A stretch of 32,000 nt of DNA from an uncultured Muribaculaceae bacterium (GCA_965231035.1 OZ246409.1:241101-273100), one strand, 5' to 3'; counted from the first letter of the stretch, positions 1,697-25,525 are shown. The notes: generated by a model from the letters alone, not told the origin. A program made the numbers and translations.

Positions 1697-4600
1697 TTAA
1701 CCTTCGCCTTTGCTTTTTACAGTATTGCGCATCAGGGCAAATTGTGCAATATGCTTTTTCAAATTAGTTTTATAAGCATTATTTATTTTTGCTGATTCAA
1801 CTAATTTTCCAAAGTTTTCATTTACACTTTTTGCTGCCCCAAAACGGCTTTCGGTTTTTAGAAACTCTTCCAGTTCCAGCGGATTATTGTCATGATTAGA
1901 ATCCATAACTAATGGGTTTTGACCCTTGTTAATCATATCAGGATTGAAACGGTAAAGGGGCCATGCGCCGGTTTGAACCATTTTCATCTGATGATCTGGT
2001 GCGTTTTGCAAATCAAATCCATGTGCAATGCACGGAGCATAAGCCAATATTATGGATGGACCATTAAACGCTTCTGCTTCACGGAAGGCTTTTAATGCTT
2101 GGGTTGGATTTGCACCTAATGATATTTGTGCGACATACGCACCGGACATCATTGCAATCATTCCCAAATCTTTCTTGGCCATTTCTTTACCACCAATCGC
2201 GAATTTCATGCTGGCACCAAATGGTGTAGATTTAGATTGCTGACCACCAGTGTTTGAATATCCTTCGGTATCCAAAACCAAAATGTTTACATTCTGTCCA
2301 CTGTGCAAAATATGGTCCAATCCGCCGTATCCAATGTCGTACGCCCAACCGTCACCGCCGATAATCCAAACAGATTTATCAACCACAGAGCCTATTAGGC
2401 TTTCTGCCATTTTCGCTTTTGGATTTTTTATTTTTGACAATTTTGCATACAAAGTTTTTTCGTTTTCGCGTTGCTTGAAAACATCTTTTTCATCAAACAT
2501 TTTTTCAACATTTGGTACTTTCAATTCAAACAACAAACTTTTCAATGCTTCTTTTTTCTGGTTCAAAGCAATACGCATTCCCAAACCATATTCTGCATTG
2601 TCTTCGAACAAAGAATTAGACCAAGCCGGTCCACGACCCGCAGCATTCTTGGTCCACGGCGTTGTTGGTAAATTCGCACCATAGATTGATGAACAACCCG
2701 TAGCATTCGCAACAACCATACGGTCACCAAATAAATGCGTCAGCATTTTTATGTATGGTGTTTCACCGCATCCTGCACACGCACCTGGAAATTCAAAATA
2801 GTGCGGTAACAATTCGACATGCTTTGTCATATTCAGGTTTAATTTTTCTGCAGGGAATTCAGGAATTTTTACAGCTTCCTTAAAATTCTTTTGCTCCCTG
2901 ACCGTTTCAGATATTGGTTTCATCTGTAATGCCTTGACTGGGCAATTTTTAACACAAACACTACATCCTGTGCAGTCTGCTGGTGAAATATTCAAAGTGA
3001 AATACATATTTTCACCCAGTTCAGTTGTCTTCATTGGAACAACTGTCATACCTTTTGCCTTGGCAGATTTCGCCTGCTTTTCTGTCAGAACATTAATTCT
3101 GATTGCAGCATGAGGACAAAGGGTTGAACATTTTCCGCATTGGATACAAGTATCCAAATTGCAAGTTGCAACACTGTCAGAAATTGCACGCTTTTCATAT
3201 TTAGATGTTCCAACTGGATATTGCCCTGCCCCGAATTCACCATCAATTTTGAAAACAGATACAGGCAAAGTATCACCCTTCATCGCAGCCATTTCACCCA
3301 AAGTACCAGCAATCTTAACAGGTGTATCAGTTACCATCGCAGGTATAAAATCAGGTGAATCTTTAACCGGCTTTCCAGGCAATTTATATTCAGTCAAAAA
3401 TTCTGATGCACGGTCAACCGCAGCCCAGTTGGCTTTTACAACTTCATTACCTTTCTTCTTGTATGTTTTTTCAATCGCATACTTGGCAGATTTTACTGCA
3501 ACATTTGGATCAATAACCTTGGTCAGGTTAAAGAAATTCAACATGATAAATGTGTTGATACGATTTCCTAATCCCAGTTCACGTGCGGCACGATTCGCAT
3601 CCAAGAAATAAACCCGTGCACGCATTCTGATTAAATGCTCTTGGGCATCTTTTGGCAAATGTGCAAAAGCATCTTCTGGAGACATACCAGTATTAATCAT
3701 AACAATTCCACCGGCACGCAGACCTGCAAAAATATCAAATCTTTGAGCAATCATAAAGTTTGAAACACTTATGAAATCCGATGATTCAACCAGGTATTGG
3801 CTTTGTATATGTTTGTCAGAAAAACGAATATGCGAAGCCGTCAAACCACCTGATTTTTTCGAATCGTAAACCGCATAAGATTGTGGATATAAATCCGAGT
3901 TATCACCAACAATTTTTACGATGTTTTTAACCGCACCAACTGTTCCATCACTGCCGATACCATACAACAAAGCAGTTTTAACTTTTGGGTTTTCAATTGA
4001 AAACGCAGGATCAGTTTTCAAAGAAAGTTTAGTTAAATCGTCTTCTATTCCAACCGTGAAATTATGATGTATTTTTCCACGAATCATATTTTCTACGATT
4101 GCTTTGACATCCCTTGGTTTGAATTCTTTGGATCCCAAACCATATCGACCGCCAAACACTTCTATTTTATCACCAACAACAGAACGAACATCTTGGTACA
4201 AAGGTTCCCCAATGCTGCCCGGTTCTTTGGTTCTGTCCAATACAGCTATTTTTTCGACTGTTTTTGGCAGTGCTTCTAAAAATGCCTTGGTTGGGAAAGG
4301 ACGGAACAAATGAATTTTAATCAACCCAACACCTTTTGGCATATAAGGTAAAGTTTCTTCGATTGTTTCACAAGAACTTCCCATAGATACGATTACATAC
4401 TTGGCCTTTTTATCGCCGACATAGTCAACCAAACCATACGAACGACCTGTCAGTTTTTCAAATTCGCCCATAACTTTTTCGACAATTTCCGGGACGGCAT
4501 CATATAATTCGTTTGCAGCCTCGCGGGATTGGAAAAATACGTCTGGATTTTGTGCAGTTCCACGGATTGTCGGATTATCCGGTGACATTCCGTTTTTGCG

Positions 4601-5203
4601 ATATTTCATCAATTCTTTTTCCGGTATCAAAGAATGTAAAACCTTTTCTTCGATACGGTCAATTCTGGATTCTTCGTGACTGGTTCTGAAACCATCAAAA
4701 AAGTGCAAAAATGGAACACGTGCACGCAAAGTTGCGGCATGTGCGATTGCAGCCATATCTTGGGCCTGTTGAACATTGTGGCTGGACAGCAATGCAAAAC
4801 CAGTTGAACGCACGGCCATAACGTCACTGTGGTCACCAAAAATGGACAAAGCATGAGTTGCCAGCGCACGTGCTGCTACGTGCATTACAAACGGTGTCTG
4901 TTCGCCAGCGATTTTATACATATTCGGAATCATCAGCAATAAACCTTGGGAAGCTGTAAAGGTTGTTGCCAGCGCACCCATCTGCAAAGCACCGTGCATA
5001 GCCCCAGCTGCACCGCCTTCGGATTGCATTTCGATAATTCCTGGGATTGCACCCCAGATATTCTTTTTGTGTTGAAAAGCCCATTCATCAGCCAATTCAC
5101 CCATGGTACTGCTCGGTGTTATTGGGTATATGGCTGCAAATTCACTGCACCGGTACGCAATATCGGCTGCGGCCCAGTTACCATCTGCTATTATTTTTGA
5201 CAT
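1697..5203 (-). CDS. nifJ: pyruvate:ferredoxin (flavodoxin) oxidoreductase, single-chain NifJ/YdbK type
   Basis: 1168 aa. It has two ferredoxin-type cluster motifs (CIQCGKCSTLCP and CTGCSVCVKNCP) and the TPP-binding motif GGDGWAYDIGYGGLDH. Length and domain order are typical of homodimeric PFOR. Confidence 0.95.
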   Translation of the reverse strand: MSKIIADGNWAAADIAYRCSEFAAIYPITPSSTMGELADEWAFQHKKNIWGAIPGIIEMQSEGGAAGAMHGALQMGALATTFTASQGLLLMIPNMYKIAGEQTPFVMHVAARALATHALSIFGDHSDVMAVRSTGFALLSSHNVQQAQDMAAIAHAATLRARVPFLHFFDGFRTSHEESRIDRIEEKVLHSLIPEKELMKYRKNGMSPDNPTIRGTAQNPDVFFQSREAANELYDAVPEIVEKVMGEFEKLTGRSYGLVDYVGDKKAKYVIVSMGSSCETIEETLPYMPKGVGLIKIHLFRPFPTKAFLEALPKTVEKIAVLDRTKEPGSIGEPLYQDVRSVVGDKIEVFGGRYGLGSKEFKPRDVKAIVENMIRGKIHHNFTVGIEDDLTKLSLKTDPAFSIENPKVKTALLYGIGSDGTVGAVKNIVKIVGDNSDLYPQSYAVYDSKKSGGLTASHIRFSDKHIQSQYLVESSDFISVSNFMIAQRFDIFAGLRAGGIVMINTGMSPEDAFAHLPKDAQEHLIRMRARVYFLDANRAARELGLGNRINTFIMLNFFNLTKVIDPNVAVKSAKYAIEKTYKKKGNEVVKANWAAVDRASEFLTEYKLPGKPVKDSPDFIPAMVTDTPVKIAGTLGEMAAMKGDTLPVSVFKIDGEFGAGQYPVGTSKYEKRAISDSVATCNLDTCIQCGKCSTLCPHAAIRINVLTEKQAKSAKAKGMTVVPMKTTELGENMYFTLNISPADCTGCSVCVKNCPVKALQMKPISETVREQKNFKEAVKIPEFPAEKLNLNMTKHVELLPHYFEFPGACAGCGETPYIKMLTHLFGDRMVVANATGCSSIYGANLPTTPWTKNAAGRGPAWSNSLFEDNAEYGLGMRIALNQKKEALKSLLFELKVPNVEKMFDEKDVFKQRENEKTLYAKLSKIKNPKAKMAESLIGSVVDKSVWIIGGDGWAYDIGYGGLDHILHSGQNVNILVLDTEGYSNTGGQQSKSTPFGASMKFAIGGKEMAKKDLGMIAMMSGAYVAQISLGANPTQALKAFREAEAFNGPSIILAYAPCIAHGFDLQNAPDHQMKMVQTGAWPLYRFNPDMINKGQNPLVMDSNHDNNPLELEEFLKTESRFGAAKSVNENFGKLVESAKINNAYKTNLKKHIAQFALMRNTVKSKGEG

Positions 5204-5348: not shown

Positions 5349-6779
5349 TTACTTTATTTCTGCTTTTTCAGGTTGGCTTTCGGTCTTTGTTACATTATCA
5401 GCTTTTATTTTATCAATGTTATCAACCGGCTTTTTAATGTCTTTTGTACCTTTTTCGACATCAGGTTTCACAACGGCGGCTTTTTTGCTTTTTAATTTTG
5501 CCATTGCACAAACCATATCCAATCCCCTTTGCAGCTGATAGTCTTTGGCTTCTTTTTGTTCGTCAGTCAAATTTTTATCGTCTTCGTCATCAGCATCCGA
5601 TTTCTTTTTATCAGTATCTTCGTTTTTCAAGGCGTTATTAAAAGAAGCTTCGGAAAACAAGCTTTGCTTTTTTTCTATAACTTCTACCTTGCTTTGCAGA
5701 ACTTCGATATCGGGTGTTATGCCTTCACCTTGGATTGATTTACCACTGGGGGTATAATAACGTGCAATGGTAATATGAATAGCCGTTCCATCACCAAGCG
5801 GTTTTTGCTGTTGAACACTGCCTTTACCAAAGCTTTGTGATCCCATAATCAATCCACGATTGTTGTCTTGGATTGCACCAGCTATAATTTCCGAAGCCGA
5901 AGCTGAACCATGGTTTATTAAAACAACCAATGGCTTTCCATGTATCAAATCGCCCTTGGTAGCAAAACTGTGGTCAATATCGCTTTTTTCGCGACCACGG
6001 GTAGAAACTATTTCACCACTGTCCAAGAAATCATCTGCAACATCAATAGCTGCCGTCAAATATCCACCTGGGTTATTGCGGACGTCCAAAACATATCCAA
6101 TAACTTTTTTCTTTTCCAATTTTGCTATTGCGTCTTTCAATTCTTTGGAAGTTGTCGCTCCGAAGTCAGAAATGCGAATATATCCAATTTTTTTATTATC
6201 ACCTTTTGCTTCGGCCTTTACAGATTCAACCTTGATAATTGCACGCTTCAAAGTTAGTGTCTTTGGTTCTTTACCTTCGGAAACAATTGTTAATTTCACA
6301 GATGTTCCTGGGCGACCCTTCATCTTTCGAACAGCTTCGTTAACAGACATATCAAAAACCTGTTCGCCGTTAATATGAGTTATGTAATCACCCGCCTTGA
6401 TTCCCGCACGCGCCGCAGGAGTATCGTCAATCGGGGAAATAACCAAAATTGCACCTTTGTCACTGGTTATCTGAATTCCCAAACCACCAAATTCACCCTG
6501 GGATTTGTCATTAAAATCCTTAAAATCATCAGCATCCAAGTACGAAGAATGTGGATCCAAAGCACCCAGCATTCCATTCATAGCGCCTTCTAACATTTTT
6601 TTCTCGTCTGGTTCTTCGACAAAATTATCACGCGCAACTTCAAAAACCATGGCCAGTTTTTTCATTTCTTCATAAATCTGGGCATCGGTTAAGTGCTTTA
6701 CAGGCTCTTTTTTTTCTGCTGCAAAACCAGTAACTGGTATAATGACCAAGGTTAACAAAATCAGTATCTTTTTGAACAT
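5349..6779 (-). CDS. ctpA: S41 family carboxy-terminal processing peptidase
   Basis: Start moved from 6839 to the ATG at 6779, which gives the signal peptide MFKKILILLTLVIIPVTGFA. It has a PDZ-like segment (GGLGIQI...PAARAGIKAGDYITHING) and the catalytic-Ser region LINHGSASASEIIAGA. A long K/E/D-rich C-terminal tail follows. Confidence 0.9.
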   Translation of the reverse strand: MFKKILILLTLVIIPVTGFAAEKKEPVKHLTDAQIYEEMKKLAMVFEVARDNFVEEPDEKKMLEGAMNGMLGALDPHSSYLDADDFKDFNDKSQGEFGGLGIQITSDKGAILVISPIDDTPAARAGIKAGDYITHINGEQVFDMSVNEAVRKMKGRPGTSVKLTIVSEGKEPKTLTLKRAIIKVESVKAEAKGDNKKIGYIRISDFGATTSKELKDAIAKLEKKKVIGYVLDVRNNPGGYLTAAIDVADDFLDSGEIVSTRGREKSDIDHSFATKGDLIHGKPLVVLINHGSASASEIIAGAIQDNNRGLIMGSQSFGKGSVQQQKPLGDGTAIHITIARYYTPSGKSIQGEGITPDIEVLQSKVEVIEKKQSLFSEASFNNALKNEDTDKKKSDADDEDDKNLTDEQKEAKDYQLQRGLDMVCAMAKLKSKKAAVVKPDVEKGTKDIKKPVDNIDKIKADNVTKTESQPEKAEIK

Positions 6780-19235: not shown

Positions 19236-19320
19236 GGGACTATGGCGAAATTGGTAGACGCGCTACCTTGAGGTGGTAGTGGAGCAATCCTTAGGAGTTC
19301 AAATCTCCTTAGTCCCACCA
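19236..19320 (+). tRNA. tRNA-Leu (anticodon GAG), CCA encoded
   Basis: Hand-folded cloverleaf:
- acceptor GGGACTA pairs with TAGTCCC
- D arm GCG/CGC with loop AAATTGGTAGA
- anticodon stem CTACC/GGTAG with loop TT-GAG-GT
- long variable arm TGGAGCAATCCTT, the class II feature typical of Leu
- T arm AGGAG-TTCAAAT-CTCCT
- discriminator A followed by CCA
Total 85 nt. Confidence 0.95.
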
Positions 19321-19374
19321 ATATTTTTTCTTCTTGCCCACATTTTCATAATTTTGCTAACATTATTCTCAGGA

Positions 19375-22300
19375 ATGAAGAAAATTACACTGCTTTTTGC
19401 TGTTTGCTTTGCGTTGCTTGGGATGCAGAAGGTTTTTGCTGATGACAGTACAGACGCTGCACGTGCTGCAACACGAGGAACAGCGACTGTGGTTGTTTCT
19501 TCACACCAAAAATCCGAAGATTATAATAGTTCTACAGAAACAACTTCTTTGCCCTCGTCTGCTTCAAGGTCTGTTGTTGGTGGCGTTCAAAAAAGCGACT
19601 CTTCCCGTGATAGAGCTGTAACAAATCGTGATAATTCTATTTCTGATAAATCCAGAACAAGTCAAACAAATCCTGTCACCGTCCCAAGAAGTGCAAGTGT
19701 TCAACAGCGAACAGCCAAAATTTCTGAAAGATCCGCTGTCAGCCGTTCTGGAATAAATCAAACAAGTAATGTTACAGTTCGCAGTTCACTGGCTGCTCGC
19801 AGTGCGTTGAAAACACAATCCCGTGGAAATATTTCTGCACGTGCAGCGACAATGGATAATGCTCCAAAACAACCTTTACCAGATACAAAATCAACAAAAA
19901 CAGATAATTCAAAATCATCTTCTGTTGGTTATAAAAAATGTCGCGAAGTTTATTACGGTTGTATGGATGAATTTTGTGCAAACAAAGACACCCAACTTAA
20001 AAGATGCGCTTGTTCATCCAGAATTCACGACTTTGACTCTGTTAAAAAGAATATGTCCAATGTCGAAGATAAAATTTTAGATTTCAATCAGCGATTAGTC
20101 AGTGTGAATCTTGATAAAGAAGATGCGGCTGCAATATCCAAAGAAACCGAAGGTGAAAAAGCTTATCAACAAACTGATAAATCAGATTCAAAAAGTATTT
20201 TGGACGAAATTTCAAAAAAATTAAAATCCAGCACAACAGATACAGATTATAACAAAAACCTTTCTGCAATATCGCTTTCGTTGGACACAGATTCGGCATT
20301 CGACAGCATAGATTCATCTTTGGGCGCATCCACAACATCCAAAGAAGGAACAGATCTTTACGATGCCGCGATTCCAGTTTGTCGCGAAATGGCGGCCGAG
20401 GTTTGTGATTCAGATGGTGCAGCAATCGCAGAAAGTGGTTACCAGATGGCAATCGAACAAGATTGTAATACTGTTGCCAAGGCTTATGAAACCCTGCAAG
20501 ACCAAGCACTGACCAAGGTTCGTGAAGGAAGCGCATTACTGGATATGTCCAGATTGGATGTTCATCAAAAAGAAAATGCTGATGACATTCTTACCTGCAA
20601 AAAGAAAATGCTGACAATGATTACAGACAGTTCTGTATGCGGTAAAAATTTAATCGAGTGTCTGGATATTTCTGGAAGATATATTGATCCTTCTACTGGC
20701 GAGGCGTTCTTGACTGAAAATTTAATTAATATGGAAAAACTTATCACCAGACCATCAGGCAACCAGAAATGGGTCGAAGTTTCAGGAAATTCACAATTCA
20801 TAACTTACTTGAATTCTAAAAAGAAATATTTGGAATCATCTATGGAAAGCTGTAAGGACATTGCTGACACTGTTTGGGATGATTTCGTCGAAGATGCGCT
20901 GGCACAAATAAAATTGGCCCAAGAAAAAAAGTTAGAAGACATGCGTCAAAGCTGTACTTCGCTTACTACACAGTGTTTAGCCGATACATCAAAATCAATT
21001 TCTGATTTTGACGCGCGCGCGCTTTCTACTTTTGGTGTAACCGCAGACAAAACAGTTAATGAAATGTGTGCTGGAATAAAAACCGCCTGCACTGCTTTAC
21101 TGGAATCAACTGGTGGCGATTCGGATTGGGTCGGCGGTATGAGTGAAATTCAAACAGATAAAACATACGACACACTTATTCAGACATGCCGCGAAGTTGG
21201 CAAGGCTTGCATTATCCAAACCTGCAAATCTGTTTCAGGAAACTTTGGATTGTGCGAAAGCGTTGATAAATCAGTTAACAGAAAATCCATTATTAATCGT
21301 GCTGCTTGTTGGTCTGACGTAATTAAATGCGTGGCTAATGCTGGCACCAGTTCTATTGACTCGATAATGAAAAAGTTTTCCAAGACCCCCAGTTCCAGTG
21401 GCGGAAACTTTTACACAGAAAATTATGGTGTGCAACCAACAGTAAGTAATTCTACAAGTGGCGCTGGATGTGATCCTACTTCATCAACAACCCCTCAAAA
21501 TTGTATTTATGATATTTGCACCGAGTGTGGTCAGTCTGGTCAGCCAGATTGTGCGACTTGCAGATTGGCTGAAAAAATATGGGGCAACTGCGAGTTTATA
21601 CCAACAAAAACATTAGATATTGTTCCACAAAACAAAATCAAGGCGACAATTTCCAGCACCGAAACATTGCTGTCTTGGTTTGATACGAACACTGGAACAA
21701 CCGATTCTGCAGAAAGCTGTCGTGATACATCATGCGGTGCCGGATTCAGGGCATTTACAACAGATGGGGTAACAACATGTTCAAAGGCTTCTGACTTTTC
21801 GTCTGACAATTTACTTTGCCCAACAAAGCAATTCTTGGTATCCCAACCTGCTTGGAAGAACTGTTGTTCTACAGAAGAATATGATGATTTTGGAAATTGT
21901 TGTCAAGATACACCAATTACAGTTTCAGGGATATCAATCTGCAGAGAAACTTCCGATATCAATGTTTTCCCTGTTGCCTCGTTTACACTCAGCAGTGACA
22001 GTAGTGTTTACAAGGCCGGGACAAATATCATGGTTTGTGTTGGTGGGACAATAGATGTTACAACCCCCGAAACTGCTTGGCCATCAGGAAGGAATGTTAA
22101 ATGTAATGGTGGACATTTTGTTATTATCAATACCACTTATGGAACATATGTCAGCCCTTATTTCAACCTTGACGATATTGGTAATCCAACAACGACGACG
22201 AATCAACATCCAACCTACCCAAGCAATTATTATTCTTTGGATTATGATGCAGCTACAAACACAAGTATAAATTGCATATATAACTTCGAAAGTAATACTT

Positions 22301-22383
22301 GGAATTCCTCTACAGGAAGTGGTGTATGTGATAAAATAACCGGGTACCCGACTAACAACAATAATCTATTTATTAAGTATTGA
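19375..22383 (+). CDS. large exported cysteine-rich protein (1002 aa), unknown function
   Basis: The track ORF starts at 19273 inside the tRNA. I use the ATG at 19375, which gives the signal peptide MKKITLLFAVCFALLGMQKVFA|DD. About 190 aa of S/T/R-rich, probably disordered sequence follow. The remaining ~800 aa carry about 40 Cys, beginning with YKKCREVYYGCMDEFCANKDTQLKRCACS. No family recognised. Confidence 0.8.
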   Translation: MKKITLLFAVCFALLGMQKVFADDSTDAARAATRGTATVVVSSHQKSEDYNSSTETTSLPSSASRSVVGGVQKSDSSRDRAVTNRDNSISDKSRTSQTNPVTVPRSASVQQRTAKISERSAVSRSGINQTSNVTVRSSLAARSALKTQSRGNISARAATMDNAPKQPLPDTKSTKTDNSKSSSVGYKKCREVYYGCMDEFCANKDTQLKRCACSSRIHDFDSVKKNMSNVEDKILDFNQRLVSVNLDKEDAAAISKETEGEKAYQQTDKSDSKSILDEISKKLKSSTTDTDYNKNLSAISLSLDTDSAFDSIDSSLGASTTSKEGTDLYDAAIPVCREMAAEVCDSDGAAIAESGYQMAIEQDCNTVAKAYETLQDQALTKVREGSALLDMSRLDVHQKENADDILTCKKKMLTMITDSSVCGKNLIECLDISGRYIDPSTGEAFLTENLINMEKLITRPSGNQKWVEVSGNSQFITYLNSKKKYLESSMESCKDIADTVWDDFVEDALAQIKLAQEKKLEDMRQSCTSLTTQCLADTSKSISDFDARALSTFGVTADKTVNEMCAGIKTACTALLESTGGDSDWVGGMSEIQTDKTYDTLIQTCREVGKACIIQTCKSVSGNFGLCESVDKSVNRKSIINRAACWSDVIKCVANAGTSSIDSIMKKFSKTPSSSGGNFYTENYGVQPTVSNSTSGAGCDPTSSTTPQNCIYDICTECGQSGQPDCATCRLAEKIWGNCEFIPTKTLDIVPQNKIKATISSTETLLSWFDTNTGTTDSAESCRDTSCGAGFRAFTTDGVTTCSKASDFSSDNLLCPTKQFLVSQPAWKNCCSTEEYDDFGNCCQDTPITVSGISICRETSDINVFPVASFTLSSDSSVYKAGTNIMVCVGGTIDVTTPETAWPSGRNVKCNGGHFVIINTTYGTYVSPYFNLDDIGNPTTTTNQHPTYPSNYYSLDYDAATNTSINCIYNFESNTWNSSTGSGVCDKITGYPTNNNNLFIKY

Positions 22384-22529
22384 TACCAAGCTGTTGCTTG
22401 TGGAAATAAAAACAGAATCGGTGGGGGAAAACCGGCGATAAAAAGAATCCGTATTTCGAATCTGTTACCAGAATTATTAGCTATATTCAATCAGTTATAA
22501 ACAATTTAATAATATTCTTGACTTGTTCC

Positions 22530-22557
22530 TTGACAAATATGATGTTCGGACTATAAT
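22530..22557 (+). promoter_or_regulatory. consensus sigma70-type promoter for the lipoprotein gene
   Basis: TTGACA (22530-22535), 16 nt, TATAAT (22552-22557). Both hexamers match consensus perfectly. An AAAGGAG RBS precedes the ATG at 22599. Confidence 0.55.
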
Positions 22558-22598
22558 GTATATACAGAAACATAAAAACACACAAAAAGGAGTGTAGA

Positions 22599-23021
22599 AT
22601 GTTTAAAAAGACTTTGGCTTATAATATAAAGAAAGCCTACATAATGATAGGGTTGGCTTTTGGTCTGGTACCAACTTTCACAGCTTGTGAAAAGAATGAT
22701 GACCAACCACAGCATTATAATACAACTTATAATTTTGTCAGAAATGTTTTGCCAGACACTGTATCAATGGCAAAAGATGGTAAAAACGAATTAGTTGACA
22801 CTGTATTTTATAAATTTGACGGAACATCTTTGGGTATGCCTTCAAGAGTGTTGTTAAGATATATTGGTCCAGCATCAAGAGCAGCATCCACCAAATTTAA
22901 TGGTGGTAAATCTGTAATAAATGGTTGCGCGATTGACACCAAAGCGGACAGTACAACCATTACCAGTATGAATTATAAATTTATAAATTCTTGGGTTGGC
23001 GGTTGGTCTATGGGTAGATAA
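22599..23021 (+). CDS. small lipoprotein, unknown function
   Basis: The N-terminus ...IMIGLAFGLVPTFTAC has lipobox F-T-A-C. 140 aa. It has a strong RBS and promoter upstream and a strong terminator downstream. Confidence 0.6.
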   Translation: MFKKTLAYNIKKAYIMIGLAFGLVPTFTACEKNDDQPQHYNTTYNFVRNVLPDTVSMAKDGKNELVDTVFYKFDGTSLGMPSRVLLRYIGPASRAASTKFNGGKSVINGCAIDTKADSTTITSMNYKFINSWVGGWSMGR

Positions 23022-23043
23022 TTATTAAAAACACTAAAAAATT

Positions 23044-23071
23044 AAATCTGATGCTTGCATCAGATTTTTTT
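23044..23071 (+). terminator. rho-independent terminator after the lipoprotein gene
   Basis: AAATCTGATGC-TT-GCATCAGATTT is a perfect 11-nt inverted repeat, followed by a T-run through 23071. Confidence 0.8.
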
Positions 23072-23108
23072 GTTGCTTAAAATAACAAAACTTCTTAAAA
23101 TTCAAATT

Positions 23109-24077
23109 ATGATTAAAAAGATTTTTTTGATTTTTGTTTTATTATTATCTGGTTCGAACGCCTTGGCAGCCGATGAGTGCTCTATATCAAATGCCACAAG
23201 TGGTTGTCTTACTGGCAAATATTGTCTATATGATTCAACAGGAAACAGTTGTATGCCATGCCCTACTGCATATCCAAATTCATTAGTAAGTAATAATAAT
23301 GAACAAACTGATTGTTATGCTTGTGCGACCAGAACCATTGCAAATGGAACTTGGGCGCCCGTCAGTCCTATATATTATCCAACAACACCAACAACATGTA
23401 CCTATAACTCTGAGAATATTGCATGTACTTATATGAATTATCCTGTTCCGGATTCAACCGAGACATATGGATACAGATGTGCATTTATGATAATATTAGA
23501 CGATTCCACCGGTTCCGGTGGCAGTGGAACAATATATGAAGTTTCTGGTGTAAAATATTTGAGCTCATCCGGAAATCAAATTGAAAATGTCGCAAAACCA
23601 ATAAAAAGCAACAGCGTTTTTACTGGGTATTATTCAAGTGGGAGTTCAATTGCCCAGATACCTGACAGTGGCATTTTACCAGGCAATACATATTTTGCTA
23701 CCTCGACAACGCTTTTTGCACATTTTTCAACTTGTTCTGGGACTGGCGAACAAGGAACAATTACAAGTTCTGTCAGTGATAACACCTGTTATTATTTTAT
23801 AACATGTAATGCAGGATACGAAAATACAACGAATTATAACCTTGCCACCAAAACAACGAACAGCTCTTTGTCTTGCACGCCTTGTTCTGCGGGATACTAT
23901 TGCCCCGGGGGTGAACATCAAGCATGTCCTAAGGGTACAACCAGCAGTGGGGGTACAACCGCTACATCAACTGCCGCCTGCCACATGCAGGGTGGGGAAA
24001 ATGGAACAAGATTTTGTGATTCTAATGGATGTTTCTATTTGCCAGATACCGCAACAATAACATCTAACTTACTATAA
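23109..24077 (+). CDS. exported cysteine-rich protein with a probable Listeria-Bacteroides (InlB B-repeat/Flg_new-like) repeat and an ephrin-receptor-like Cys repeat
   Basis: The track ORF starts with TTG at 23055 inside the terminator. I use the ATG at 23109 (MIKKIFLIFVLLLSGSNALA|AD). It has 20 Cys. The segment ILDDSTGSGGSG...KPIKSNSVFTGYYSSG...GNTYFATSTTLFAHF resembles the v-fD-x-nGG...GY-x-F-x-GWY...tLYA-x-W repeat. At 23871-23984, SCTPCSAGYYCPGGEHQACPKGTTSSGGTTATSTAACH resembles the GCC2_GCC3/Ephrin_rec_like pattern. Both domain names are from memory. Confidence 0.7.
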   Translation: MIKKIFLIFVLLLSGSNALAADECSISNATSGCLTGKYCLYDSTGNSCMPCPTAYPNSLVSNNNEQTDCYACATRTIANGTWAPVSPIYYPTTPTTCTYNSENIACTYMNYPVPDSTETYGYRCAFMIILDDSTGSGGSGTIYEVSGVKYLSSSGNQIENVAKPIKSNSVFTGYYSSGSSIAQIPDSGILPGNTYFATSTTLFAHFSTCSGTGEQGTITSSVSDNTCYYFITCNAGYENTTNYNLATKTTNSSLSCTPCSAGYYCPGGEHQACPKGTTSSGGTTATSTAACHMQGGENGTRFCDSNGCFYLPDTATITSNLL

Positions 24078-24223
24078 TCAACAAACCGTAATCATTATTC
24101 AATACAAATCTATCCTGTCCAATATATTGGACACTTTTCGAGTGATATATTAAAGCTATGTCAAAATATATGTACATTATTCCATTGTCCAATATATTGG
24201 ACAGGTTTATTTTTATTCTTAGA

Positions 24224-24271
24224 ATTTATAATCAAATTCATAATCAGATTTATAATCTGATCTATAATCAA
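24224..24271. repeat. 4 x 12-bp direct tandem repeat (ATTTATAATCAA / ATTCATAATCAG / ATTTATAATCTG / ATCTATAATCAA)
   Basis: The core [TC]ATAATC recurs at 24227, 24239, 24251 and 24263, an exact 12-bp period. It lies between palindrome copies 2 and 3. Confidence 0.9.
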
Positions 24272-24292
24272 GACATATTCATATTATGCAGT

Positions 24293-24528
24293 TGTCCAAT
24301 ATATTGGACAAGTTTTTAAATAACACATCAAGATTATAAAAAAGCAAACGGAAATAAAATATGAAATGTCCAATATATTGGACACTTTTTGATTGATTCG
24401 TTGATACTGTAAAAAACACAAAAACAAAAGGTGTATTGTCCAATATATTGGACAAGTTTTTAAATAACACATCAAGATTATAAAAAAGCAAACGGAAATA
24501 AAATATGAAATGTCCAATATATTGGACA
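24293..24528. repeat. 92-bp unit duplicated with 144-bp period (each unit carries two palindromes)
   Basis: 24293-24384 and 24437-24528 read identically by eye: TGTCCAATATATTGGACAAGTTTTTAAATAACACATCAAGATTATAAAAAAGCAAACGGAAATAAAATATGAAATGTCCAATATATTGGACA. Confidence 0.9.
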
Positions 24529-24968
24529 CTTTTCGAGTGATATACTAAAGCTATATAAAATTATGTGCTTAAAAAACAAAAATAAAAGCCTTGATTGTCC
24601 AATATATTGGATAGGTTTGCTTAAATATATACGAATAAAAAGCAAAAATGAAAACCTTGATGTCCAATATATTAGACACTTTTATAGTGACACACTGAAG
24701 CTGTATCAAAACATATGTACATTATTCCTTTGTCCAATATATTGGACACTTTTTGAGTGATATACTAAAGCTATATAAAATTATGTGCTTAAAAAACAAA
24801 AATAAAAGCCTTGATTGTCCAATATATTGGATAGGTTTGCTTAAATATATACGAATAAAAAGCAAAAATGAAAACCTTGATGTCCAATATATTAGACACT
24901 TTTATAGTGACACACTGAAGCTGTATCAAAACATATGTACATTATTCCTTTGTCCAATATATTGGATA
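24529..24968. repeat. near-perfect 220-bp tandem duplication (each unit carries three palindromes)
   Basis: 24529-24748 and 24749-24968 differ at only about two positions that I can see (CTTTTCGAG vs CTTTTTGAG, and the last palindrome GGACA vs GGATA). 24116-24203 looks like the same unit with an internal deletion. Confidence 0.9.
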
Positions 24969-24977
24969 ATCAAATTA

Positions 24978-25283
24978 TTACCTATTTTCTACCTTAAATT
25001 TTATGTCAAAAAGATTTAGCAACCGCAAAATTGTTATAAAACTTGGATTACCCGACGGCGACAAAATATTATAAAAACTGCTGCGCGAGATTCCCAAAAT
25101 TTCAGGAATACTTTGTCTACGATGGTGCGTTTTTGCTATTTCCATCAGTATATATTTTATTTTTTCTATATCTAAATTATCCAAAGCGATAGATAACTCA
25201 GATATCAAATATTGGTCAATTTCTTTATTATCAATAAAAAATTCACGGTTTATTTTTGGCTTTGATAAAAGTGAAAATCGCAT
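24978..25283 (-). CDS. HTH DNA-binding protein of the 'addiction module antidote' (HigA-like, COG3636-type) family, with no toxin partner visible
   Basis: 101 aa. The C-terminal half ...IPEILGISRSSFYNILSPSGNPSFITILRLLNLFDIKFKV closely matches the family hallmark G-x-S-R-x-S-L-Y-K-A-L-S-x-x-G-N-P-x-F-x-T-x-L-K-V-x-x-A-L-G-L-x-L (from memory). A GGAGA RBS lies 8 nt upstream of the ATG. Confidence 0.8.
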   Translation of the reverse strand: MRFSLLSKPKINREFFIDNKEIDQYLISELSIALDNLDIEKIKYILMEIAKTHHRRQSIPEILGISRSSFYNILSPSGNPSFITILRLLNLFDIKFKVENR

Positions 25284-25309
25284 AATTATTCTCCATAAAA
25301 TATACGCGT

Positions 25310-25338
25310 ATTATACAGTTGTCCAATATATTGGACAA
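25310..25338 (-). promoter_or_regulatory. candidate promoter of the HTH gene, with -35 and spacer covered by palindrome copy 13
   Basis: On the minus strand: TTGTCC (25338-25333), 17 nt, TATAAT (25315-25310), 26 nt upstream of the ATG at 25283. The palindrome at 25320-25337 occupies the -35 and spacer, a typical autorepression layout. Confidence 0.45.
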
Positions 25339-25525
25339 GGTTATTTTTATTTTCAAAACCTATAAAATAAGGAATATACTTATTATAAACCTGTCCAATA
25401 TATTGGACAGGTTTATATTATGCTTTTACACAGGCACGGACACAGATTATATAGATATAATACATATGTATGAATATTTTTGTCACCATGTGGTTAATTC
25501 CCCAGGATGACAATAAGAAAAAATT

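Follow-up and report, generated by a model that had tools for sequence, protein, structure and literature searches.

Addiction modules of the HI1419/HI1420 type consist of a RelE-like toxin and a helix-turn-helix (HTH) antitoxin, the latter belonging to the Pfam family PF21716 (dnstrm_HI1420), which is described as a 'probable addiction module antidote protein'. We take this family to be equivalent to COG3636, going by the Joint Genome Institute (JGI) product name 'DNA-binding phage protein'. The COG3657-COG3636 pair, a RelE-like toxin with an HTH antitoxin, was listed by Makarova et al. (2009; PMC2701414). Neither a described operator nor a solved structure was found for PF21716 in our literature and structure searches. 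The operator of the antitoxin HipB has the consensus TATCCN8GGATA and is present as four sites to which the Xre-type dimers bind cooperatively (PMC3376134). Here we describe a locus in a window of 32,000 nucleotides (the whole stretch of DNA that was analysed) from an uncultured Muribaculaceae bacterium (GCA_965231035.1, OZ246409.1:241101-273100), in which 14 copies of the 18-bp palindrome TGTCCAATATATTGGACA surround the gene of a 101-amino-acid (aa) HTH protein (Table 1). We consider it likely that the 18-mer is the operator of this protein, that the protein is a former antitoxin acting as an autorepressor, and that the downstream copies are duplicated cassettes which may serve as a sink or a roadblock.

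The 101-aa protein matched PF21716 with an E-value of 9.9e-08 and a score of 32.2 bits, against a gathering score of 27 and a stricter TIGR02684 equivalog cut-off of 53.7, under which it falls. It also matched PHROG 4268 'transcriptional repressor' (E 1.2e-09) and could be aligned end to end with a canonical member of the PF21716 family, and a protein search returned 39 homologues of 58-97% identity. Judged by its sequence, the protein is a member of the HI1420-type antitoxin family, but it does not form part of a two-gene module. No toxin gene was found beside it, as the 242 bp upstream (25284-25525) contain two palindromes only and are followed by pth. Likewise, no toxin gene was called in the 14 orthologue lineages described below, a Pfam scan of the upstream neighbours in L207, L210 and L212 (labels of this kind denote related loci and contigs) gave no match to a toxin remnant, and a PADLOC search for defence systems gave no match. 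The predicted structure has six helices at a mean pLDDT of 73. No solved structure matched the protein or the family profile by sequence, and Foldseek gave no hit at E below 0.4; HipB and C.AhdI, both Xre-type, recurred among the weak Foldseek matches, HipB with non-significant values of 1.8-5.9.

A pattern search that allowed up to two mismatches found the 14 matches to TGTCCAATATATTGGACA at 24116-25409, nine of them exact and five with one mismatch, at a chance expectation of 0.01 (100 shuffles, maximum 1). These are the number and the coordinates given in an earlier note on this DNA. In the rest of the 32-kb window TGTCC-N8-GGACA did not occur. The start-to-start spacing of copies 1-12 is 70, 107, 74, 70, 74, 85, 65, 70, 85, 65 and 70 bp, and copies 13 and 14 follow past the HTH gene after 369 and then 72 bp, which agrees with the spacing of mostly 65-85 bp and the two copies beyond the gene that had been described. 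Helical phasing was considered and rejected; the spacings of 65, 70, 74, 85 and 107 bp are not multiples of the helical turn, therefore no phasing argument is possible. The extended dyad reported at 25389-25412 is real and runs on to 15 pairs around copy 14, and the 101-aa open reading frame (ORF) is the only credible gene in the array, as had been stated.

The half-site layout had also been likened to that of the HipB operator, and indeed TGTCC-N8-GGACA and TATCCN8GGATA both consist of 5-bp arms that are 8 bp apart. In three window copies one of the arms is itself TATCC, and hipBA resembles the putative system described here in having a small HTH antitoxin-type autorepressor. In contrast to hipBA, the window protein belongs to another Pfam family, no HTH_3 Pfam match was found in it, no HipA was found in the window, and the fold match is at E 1.8 or worse. 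Moreover, the window sites are 65-107 bp apart and not packed in one promoter.

Both palindromes upstream of the HTH gene overlap the -35 hexamer and the spacer of a promoter-like element, and they do so in the same register (P1 and P2, Table 1). The proximal P1 has 10/12 consensus matches in the promoter scan, and a Shine-Dalgarno sequence GGAGA at 25294-25290 is found 6 nt ahead of the HTH ATG at 25283. The -10 of P2 matches the consensus at 6/6 positions, whereas its -35 does so at only 3/6, hence it was not listed by the scan. A -10-like hexamer 4 nt past the palindrome in the direction of the HTH gene was present in 6/14 window copies, and the small promoter-or-hairpin cassettes that the earlier note had offered as an alternative are in this respect partly right. 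When 73 sites from 12 loci were compared, a good -10 was found downstream in the HTH direction 22 times versus 7 times in the reverse direction, and a T-rich tract was found downstream 7 times forward versus 24 times in reverse. A T-rich tract (CTTTT or GGTTT) on the plus strand had been reported for 13 of the 14 copies. The count is correct, the copy at 24951 being the one that lacks it, but three of the 13 tracts read AGTTT or AGGTT. The plus-strand T tract is the A-rich upstream flank of the promoter-operator cassette, read on the opposite strand.

Orthologue DNA for 13 further lineages was obtained from 18-mer scans or exact look-up, giving 14 lineages in total (the window, L208, L142, L123, L174, L212, L207, L210, L224, L225, L226, L227, L228 and L229), of which 13 are covered upstream of the gene, the 5′ end of L174 being cut. 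All 13 lineages with upstream DNA have a perfect cognate 18-bp palindrome that ends 36-52 nt before the ATG, and in all 13 a -10 hexamer is present 3-5 nt past this palindrome (TATAAT in 12, TATAGT in L227). In L142 the proximal copy has a weaker hexamer, and TATAAT follows two more distal copies. A cognate palindrome was also found 3-35 nt past the stop codon in 13/14 lineages, at 3-10 nt in most, at 25 nt in L123 and at 35 nt in L228; in L210 none was present within 375 nt of the stop codon. Further copies are usually found near the orthologue genes. When the palindromes were masked, only the HTH gene and the proximal promoter could be aligned between lineages, while the palindromes are identical at 18/18 positions. 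Unaligned spacers next to identical palindromes therefore suggest selection on the site and argue against a conserved spacer RNA.

The recognition helix and the palindrome vary together. Proteins with the helix SRSSFY(N/Q)(I/M)L are accompanied by TGTCC-AATATATT-GGACA, those with SRPGFYNIL by TGTCT-AATATATT-AGACA, those with SRPG(F/Y)YKML by TGTCT-ACTATAGT-AGACA, those with SKSGFYKML by TGTCC-ACTATAGT-GGACA and those with SKSGFYNML by TGTCC-TTTATAAA-GGACA. Both half-sites, and all local copies, shift in concert between these five palindrome types; site position 5 changes with residues 67-69 of the protein, and positions 6-8 change with residues 72-73. For P0034 and P0035 the site type was derived from the helix in advance, without sight of the DNA, and the sequences then agreed with both predictions. 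In a neighbour-joining tree built without residues 64-76 (about 88 residues, short and weakly resolved), the RPG motif and lysine 72 (K72) each appear at more than one place, and the site tracks the residue and not the tree. These data give good support to the view that the HTH protein recognises the 18-bp palindrome as its putative operator.

A link to a canonical module was found in Spectribacter acetivorans (L045), a gammaproteobacterium with 67% G+C, where the identical 18-mer is positioned about 25 nt upstream of the toxin ATG in a two-gene operon of a Gp49-like toxin and an HI1420 antitoxin. We roughly estimate a probability of well below 1% that one of some 45 unrelated 18-mer hits would adjoin the PF21716 family by chance. 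In IMG/VR, palindromes of the form TGTAA-N8-TTACA or TGTGA-N8-TCACA precede the toxin gene of several phage-borne family members. Because of the 18-mer in L045 and these phage-borne palindromes, TGTnn-N8-nnACA looks like the operator of the family, and the window protein seems to have retained the ancestral site when the toxin was lost. The proposal in the earlier note of an operator-type site for the embedded HTH protein is thus supported by the promoter position, the covariation in 14 lineages and the identical 18-mer at a canonical operon. The window locus shares with HI1419/HI1420-type modules the PF21716 family and an 18-bp TGTnn-N8-nnACA palindrome in the promoter. Unlike these modules, the window and the 14 lineages are without a toxin, 14 candidate operator copies are present instead of one or two, and the sites are also found past the stop codon, before unrelated genes and dispersed in relatives.

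In the mechanism that we propose, the 101-aa protein would descend from the antitoxin of an HI1419/HI1420-type module from which the toxin was lost. The operator layout TGTnn-N8-nnACA would have been kept and would presumably be bound by a dimer in which each recognition helix contacts one TGTCC arm. The two upstream copies would sit on sigma-70-type promoters (TTGTCC or CTGTCC, 17 nt, TATAAT), allowing the HTH protein to silence its own transcription; since the palindrome is placed over the promoter of its gene, the protein can be expected to regulate itself negatively, as do the toxin-antitoxin modules from which it derives. The 12 downstream copies would be operator or promoter-operator cassettes that were multiplied by tandem duplication between convergent genes. 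The array probably retains a large repressor pool at the locus and could in this way act as a sink or buffer, and the bound protein together with the hairpins and T tracts may stop transcription entering from the neighbouring surface-protein gene. That the protein binds as a dimer, that it represses and that the array has a selected function at all are inferences, as is the role of the array as a high-capacity sink, a roadblock or a terminator stack.

The array is more complex than a plain tandem repeat. Its downstream part contains two duplications of palindrome-bearing units (Table 1), and the spacer families simply mirror them. These repeats show that the downstream copies go back to recent segmental duplications of cassettes containing the candidate operator. 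All copy numbers come from short-read metagenome assemblies. Three other assemblies of the source organism either break within the array or show 11 copies, and in L084, an assembly with 11 copies, the second 220-bp unit is missing; therefore the number of 14 represents one allele or possibly a collapsed count. Two assemblies of a sister strain contain 13 and 6 copies, although they agree fully in their flanks (100% identity), and these flanks match the window at 91-96%. Near the genes of more distant orthologues 2-6 exact cognate copies were counted, apart from L123 (about 17 clustered sites at two or fewer mismatches) and L207, where 12.3 kb contain 8 exact ones. The earlier note had raised the absence of the array in relatives that keep the gene: the sister strain does keep it, and the low number of copies holds for the distant orthologues other than these two. 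As regards the copy number itself, neutral and unstable amplification has to be taken seriously as an alternative.

Several observations weigh against the operator reading. Eight of the 14 window copies have no -10. A mutated half-site is present in three independent window copies, which suggests relaxed constraint. The structure model is of moderate confidence only and the fold matches are not significant, and assembly collapse may partly explain the differences in copy number. The gene is inherited together with its flanking DNA, and part of the covariation could go back to shared descent. Against this speak the combinatorial pattern and the fact that all copies change in concert, but because of this joint inheritance and the weakly resolved tree we regard the helix-site covariation as strong circumstantial evidence, not as proof. 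In related alphaproteobacterial metagenome-assembled genomes (MAGs), single copies are mostly found between convergent or tandem genes, as would be the case for terminators or repetitive extragenic palindromic (REP) elements, and the dispersed copies often have the form AAAAAAG-palindrome-CTTTTTT, which fits terminators or REP-like elements better than operators. Finally, the exact 18-mer is present 2 nt upstream of the yefM-yoeB ATG in seven loci from other phyla.

These yefM-yoeB loci (L035 at 1158-1680, L004, L031, L039, L047, L065 and L067) belong to Verrucomicrobiota, Polaromonas and Fontimonas, and the gene pair was confirmed in L035 by PF02604 and PF06769. An unrelated antitoxin fold thus appears to share the identical candidate operator sequence, and therefore the 18-mer alone does not name its binder. 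In Achromobacter spp. (L014 3949, L021 2927, L042 1204) the exact 18-mer is conserved upstream of one common gene, with a partial repeat ATGTCCAATATC 10 nt ahead, and looks like the conserved operator of some regulator.

One Rickettsiales MAG carries the exact 18-mer on more than 20 of its contigs, and other alphaproteobacterial MAGs from termite guts have it on several contigs each. Nearly all of these copies are intergenic, and crude ORF maps place about 13 of them in convergent, 15 in tandem and 1 in divergent gaps. In metagenomes, at least 120 stretches matched in the 18-mer scan. Clusters of the 18-mer are present in L123, L142 and L001. The genomes in question contain seven related types of palindrome side by side, and one 69-kb contig carries two HTH paralogues with different palindromes. 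Genome-wide dispersal of the 18-mer, which had been raised as a point to be checked, is thus seen in related genomes but not in the 32-kb window, where no copy is present outside the locus.

REP elements are paired with cognate RAYT (tyrosine transposase) genes. REPIN populations have been described (PMC8049555). The main rival to the operator reading, on account of the dispersal, the seven palindrome types and the paralogous HTH-site pairs, is that the palindrome is a REP/REPIN-like dispersed family in which the HTH gene takes the role of RAYT and the array is a pile-up and not a regulatory device. As in REP/REPIN-RAYT systems, extragenic palindromes are found at gene 3′ ends and in clusters, with a strong excess in convergent gaps; there are several families, each with a flanked gene, the HTH gene is bounded on both sides by its own palindrome in nearly every lineage, and copy number turns over quickly. 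The copies in L017 are moreover at the centre of longer inverted repeats. In contrast to such systems, the flanked gene encodes a bare 101-aa HTH protein without a catalytic domain, no Y1 or other transposase was called beside any locus, and the palindrome is perfect and lacks an asymmetric REP head. The fixed -10 register and the toxin-antitoxin operator in L045 rather suggest a regulatory origin, and the window itself is free of copies outside the locus. Because there is no transposase, we do not regard the locus as a REP-RAYT pair, and we judge the REPIN-like explanation to be unlikely.

A broader possibility, which we hold to be conceivable though doubtful, is that several orthogonal, co-evolving pairs of toxin-less HI1420-type HTH proteins and 18-bp palindromes exist in a clade of small-genome, host-associated Alphaproteobacteria, with the sites having left their original promoter and spreading as compact terminator-promoter-operator 'punctuation' and the array being an amplification hotspot or nursery of such sites. 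Some dispersed copies are part of larger repeats. In L017 (Rickettsiales MAG; 3700-4100 and 5350-5650) the 18-mer is found inside an imperfect inverted repeat GGGGAATTTAGACCGAG ... CTCGGTGGTAATTCCCC, which is itself repeated and resembles a composite of the miniature inverted-repeat transposable element type. The WRHR01 contigs L008, L028 and L051 have the shared flanks AATAGCAT-palindrome-N7-TGTTGCA, and these units are located within terminal inverted repeats GATTAGCAATT ... AATTGCTAATTG, a larger repeat around the palindrome. Two more types of perfect palindrome that are dispersed in these genomes are TGTCCATTATAATGGACA (L112, L166, L055, L075) and TGTCTATTATAATAGACA (L141, L187, L079).

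The T tracts and the hairpins could also mean that the units are protein-free intrinsic terminators behind the 340-aa gene, each with a 7-9 bp hairpin and a T tract, which resemble each other through duplication. A terminator scan gave 9 sites in the region versus 0.6 expected, 7 of them on the plus strand, which is also the strand of the T-rich tracts at 13/14 copies. The hairpins have -7 to -13 kcal/mol (-15.8 for the AAAAAAG...CTTTTTT form of the relatives), and at least 6 T in 8 positions beside the palindrome were counted in 59/186 distinct 18-mer contexts. The stems on the other hand are weak, with 3 G-C pairs. A hairpin would tolerate compensatory changes in the stem of single copies, but copies within a genome are identical, loop included, and the window variants are single, non-compensated changes. 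Moreover, the site type follows the recognition helix of the HTH protein, the upstream copies hold a fixed promoter register here and in orthologues, and in the syntenic L174 it is the HTH strand that carries the T tracts, and not the strand of the cysteine-rich gene. We therefore think it very unlikely that the units are terminators and nothing else, and keep to the operator as the preferred reading.

Promoter-like cassettes could instead drive short non-coding transcripts that end at the next palindrome, as a battery of small RNAs under control of the HTH protein. The -10-like hexamers kept in one direction by 6/14 copies are consistent with this, and so is the finding that the post-stop cassette precedes a real gene in L225, L212 and L229. 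In L225 sites are present in each gap of the HTH, chorismate mutase and 177-aa genes, and the post-stop copy belongs to the gene that comes next as its cassette; the window has no such following gene. Palindromes in L207, L057 and L190 are followed by a conserved, about 90-nt element with a terminator at its end, but this element is absent from the window. In addition, the spacers are unconserved between lineages and merely reflect duplications, they have no coding potential, and Rfam gave no match for the array in the window or in seven related loci. A small-RNA battery is accordingly given little credence by us. The about 90-nt element GACATATACCGGACATAG ends in a G+C-rich hairpin and a T tract (L207 6312-6440, L057 7432-7560, L190 about 1167), has no Rfam match and may be a palindrome-controlled small RNA. 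In the window the sole Rfam match was a tRNA at 19236-19317, and nothing relevant was found in the seven related loci. A conserved small RNA in the spacers was rejected, as nothing was alignable between lineages after palindrome masking. The fold of the whole array as RNA (z about -12 on both strands) was also dismissed, since it reflects trivial pairing of the repeated palindromes.

Promoter reuse, by reused or 'mobile' promoters, has been described in prokaryotes (PMC3575422). Similar to these, one cassette is found here before unrelated genes and is locally duplicated (L207 5365 and 5944; the gaps of L225). Unlike them, the cassette bears the candidate site of the adjacent repressor, and most window copies drive no gene.

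The stoperators of cluster A mycobacteriophages are asymmetric 13-mers that act in an orientation-dependent manner and are bound by a two-domain monomeric repressor (PMC9283540). A stoperator set had been suggested for the array, and the two share one repressor with many identical sites, some in promoters and many in short intergenic gaps, where elongation could be stopped; sites in such gaps were seen in related MAGs, whereas within the 32-kb window all sites are in one locus. The window sites, however, are perfect 18-bp palindromes on a chromosome, and the protein has no relative in IMG/VR. Membership of the array in the stoperators is not supported, because stoperators are asymmetric and bound by a monomeric phage repressor. 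A search of IMG/VR gave no relative of the clade of the window protein, and the 18-mer was present on 10 viral contigs in single copies only, for which reasons a phage origin of the system was rejected. The 86%-identical orthologue in L208 (1-12306) is found in a prophage-like region among phage capsid, T7-type terminase, Mu F-like and DnaB genes, and that of L226 is near phage-capsid genes.

On one side, the locus is bordered by pth, polA, recO, a dsbA-like gene and ribosomal protein genes, and on the other side by three cysteine-rich genes for which Pfam gave no match. The 340-aa (plus strand) and HTH (minus strand) genes are convergent, and the space between their 3′ ends is taken up by the array. 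The earlier note had compared the array to centromere-like or partition sites. A partition site or replication-origin-type array nucleated by the HTH protein would superficially resemble the sopC/parC clusters next to a small DNA-binding protein gene; the region is AT-rich (GC 0.26), and the GC skew changes sign near 19-20 kb. However, no gene for a partition nucleoside triphosphatase (NTPase; ParA, ParM, TubZ) was found by Pfam among the scanned window genes or among those called near the HTH gene of any fetched locus, and the absence of this NTPase argues against a partition site. The array is on a chromosome, and the orthologues elsewhere are in unrelated genomic contexts with only 2-4 sites. 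A replication origin was rejected as well, since 16 DnaA boxes versus 12.4 expected are present without a cluster in the array, and the skew change follows gene orientation. We give this explanation next to no probability.

The three cysteine-rich genes at 19273-24077 (plus strand) encode proteins of 1036, 140 and 340 aa that look secreted. In the sister strain the 340-aa gene is replaced by a different 477-aa gene with a weak Flg_new match (L083 11116-12546 versus L230/L231), and the locus that abuts the array is a hypervariable surface-protein locus. Further away on the minus strand (13745-16559 and 16899-17525), three tandem paralogues of 242 aa and two of 208 aa are encoded. The 242-aa paralogues show a faint nucleotidyltransferase-like motif only, and the translated region 15933-16880 is also cysteine-rich. 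A tie between these paralogues and the nucleotidyltransferase next to the L229 orthologue was rejected, as it consisted of the shared motif alone (E 0.001 over 33 residues). A pyruvate:ferredoxin oxidoreductase gene is present at 1697-5203 (minus strand), on an 849-kb contig with 37% G+C, and the organism looks like an alphaproteobacterial anaerobe with a small genome; its relatives come from termite guts.

Table 1. Coordinates of the features at the palindrome array, counted from the first nucleotide of the window.
Feature	Coordinates	Strand	Remarks
HTH gene, 101 aa	24978..25283	-	PF21716 dnstrm_HI1420 match; only credible gene within the array
Proximal promoter P1 (predicted)	25310..25338	-	-35 TTGTCC 25338-25333, 17-nt spacer, -10 TATAAT 25315-25310
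Distal promoter-like cassette P2	25382..25410	-	CTGTCC 25410-25405, 17-nt spacer, TATAAT 25387-25382
Candidate operator copy 1	24116..24133		exact; 39 nt past the stop of the convergent 340-aa gene
Candidate operator copy 2	24186..24203		exact; promoter-like on minus strand, AATAAT at +4
Candidate operator copy 3	24293..24310		exact; promoter-like on minus strand, TTGTCC-17-CATAAT
Candidate operator copy 4	24367..24384		exact
Candidate operator copy 5	24437..24454		exact
Candidate operator copy 6	24511..24528		exact
Candidate operator copy 7	24596..24613		one mismatch, GGATA
Candidate operator copy 8	24661..24678		one mismatch, AGACA
Candidate operator copy 9	24731..24748		exact; promoter-like on minus strand, AATAAT at +4
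Candidate operator copy 10	24816..24833		one mismatch, GGATA
Candidate operator copy 11	24881..24898		one mismatch, AGACA
Candidate operator copy 12, TGTCCAATATATTGGATA	24951..24968		one mismatch, GGATA; 10 nt past the HTH stop; AATAAT 4 nt on, in the HTH direction
Candidate operator copy 13	25320..25337		exact; over -35 and spacer of P1; ends 37 nt before the ATG
Candidate operator copy 14	25392..25409		exact; centre of the 34-bp dyad 25384-25417
Tandem duplication, 220-bp three-palindrome unit	24511..24950		24511-24730 and 24731-24950, 100% identical
Older two-palindrome duplication, about 125 nt, 144-bp offset	24292..24560		24292-24416 and 24436-24560, 91% identical
12-bp microsatellite AATTTATAATCA x4.1	24223..24271		within the longest spacer
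Convergent neighbour, 340-aa cysteine-rich protein	23055..24077	+	looks secreted; no Pfam match

If the operator reading is true, a concrete operator, TGTnn-N8-nnACA, would be assigned to an antitoxin family, and the five site types set against two helix patches would form a natural specificity series, that is, a testable protein-DNA code and a source of orthogonal repressor-operator pairs. The main value would be in this assignment and this series, while the practical weight of the copy number is uncertain. It would also mean that the autoregulatory site of a toxin-antitoxin module can outlive the toxin, multiply and disperse to gene ends in reduced genomes. This dispersal bears on the origin of REP-like repeats and on the role of orphan antitoxins, and 'punctuation' cassettes, if they exist, would be an analogue of REPIN-RAYT systems that works without a transposase.

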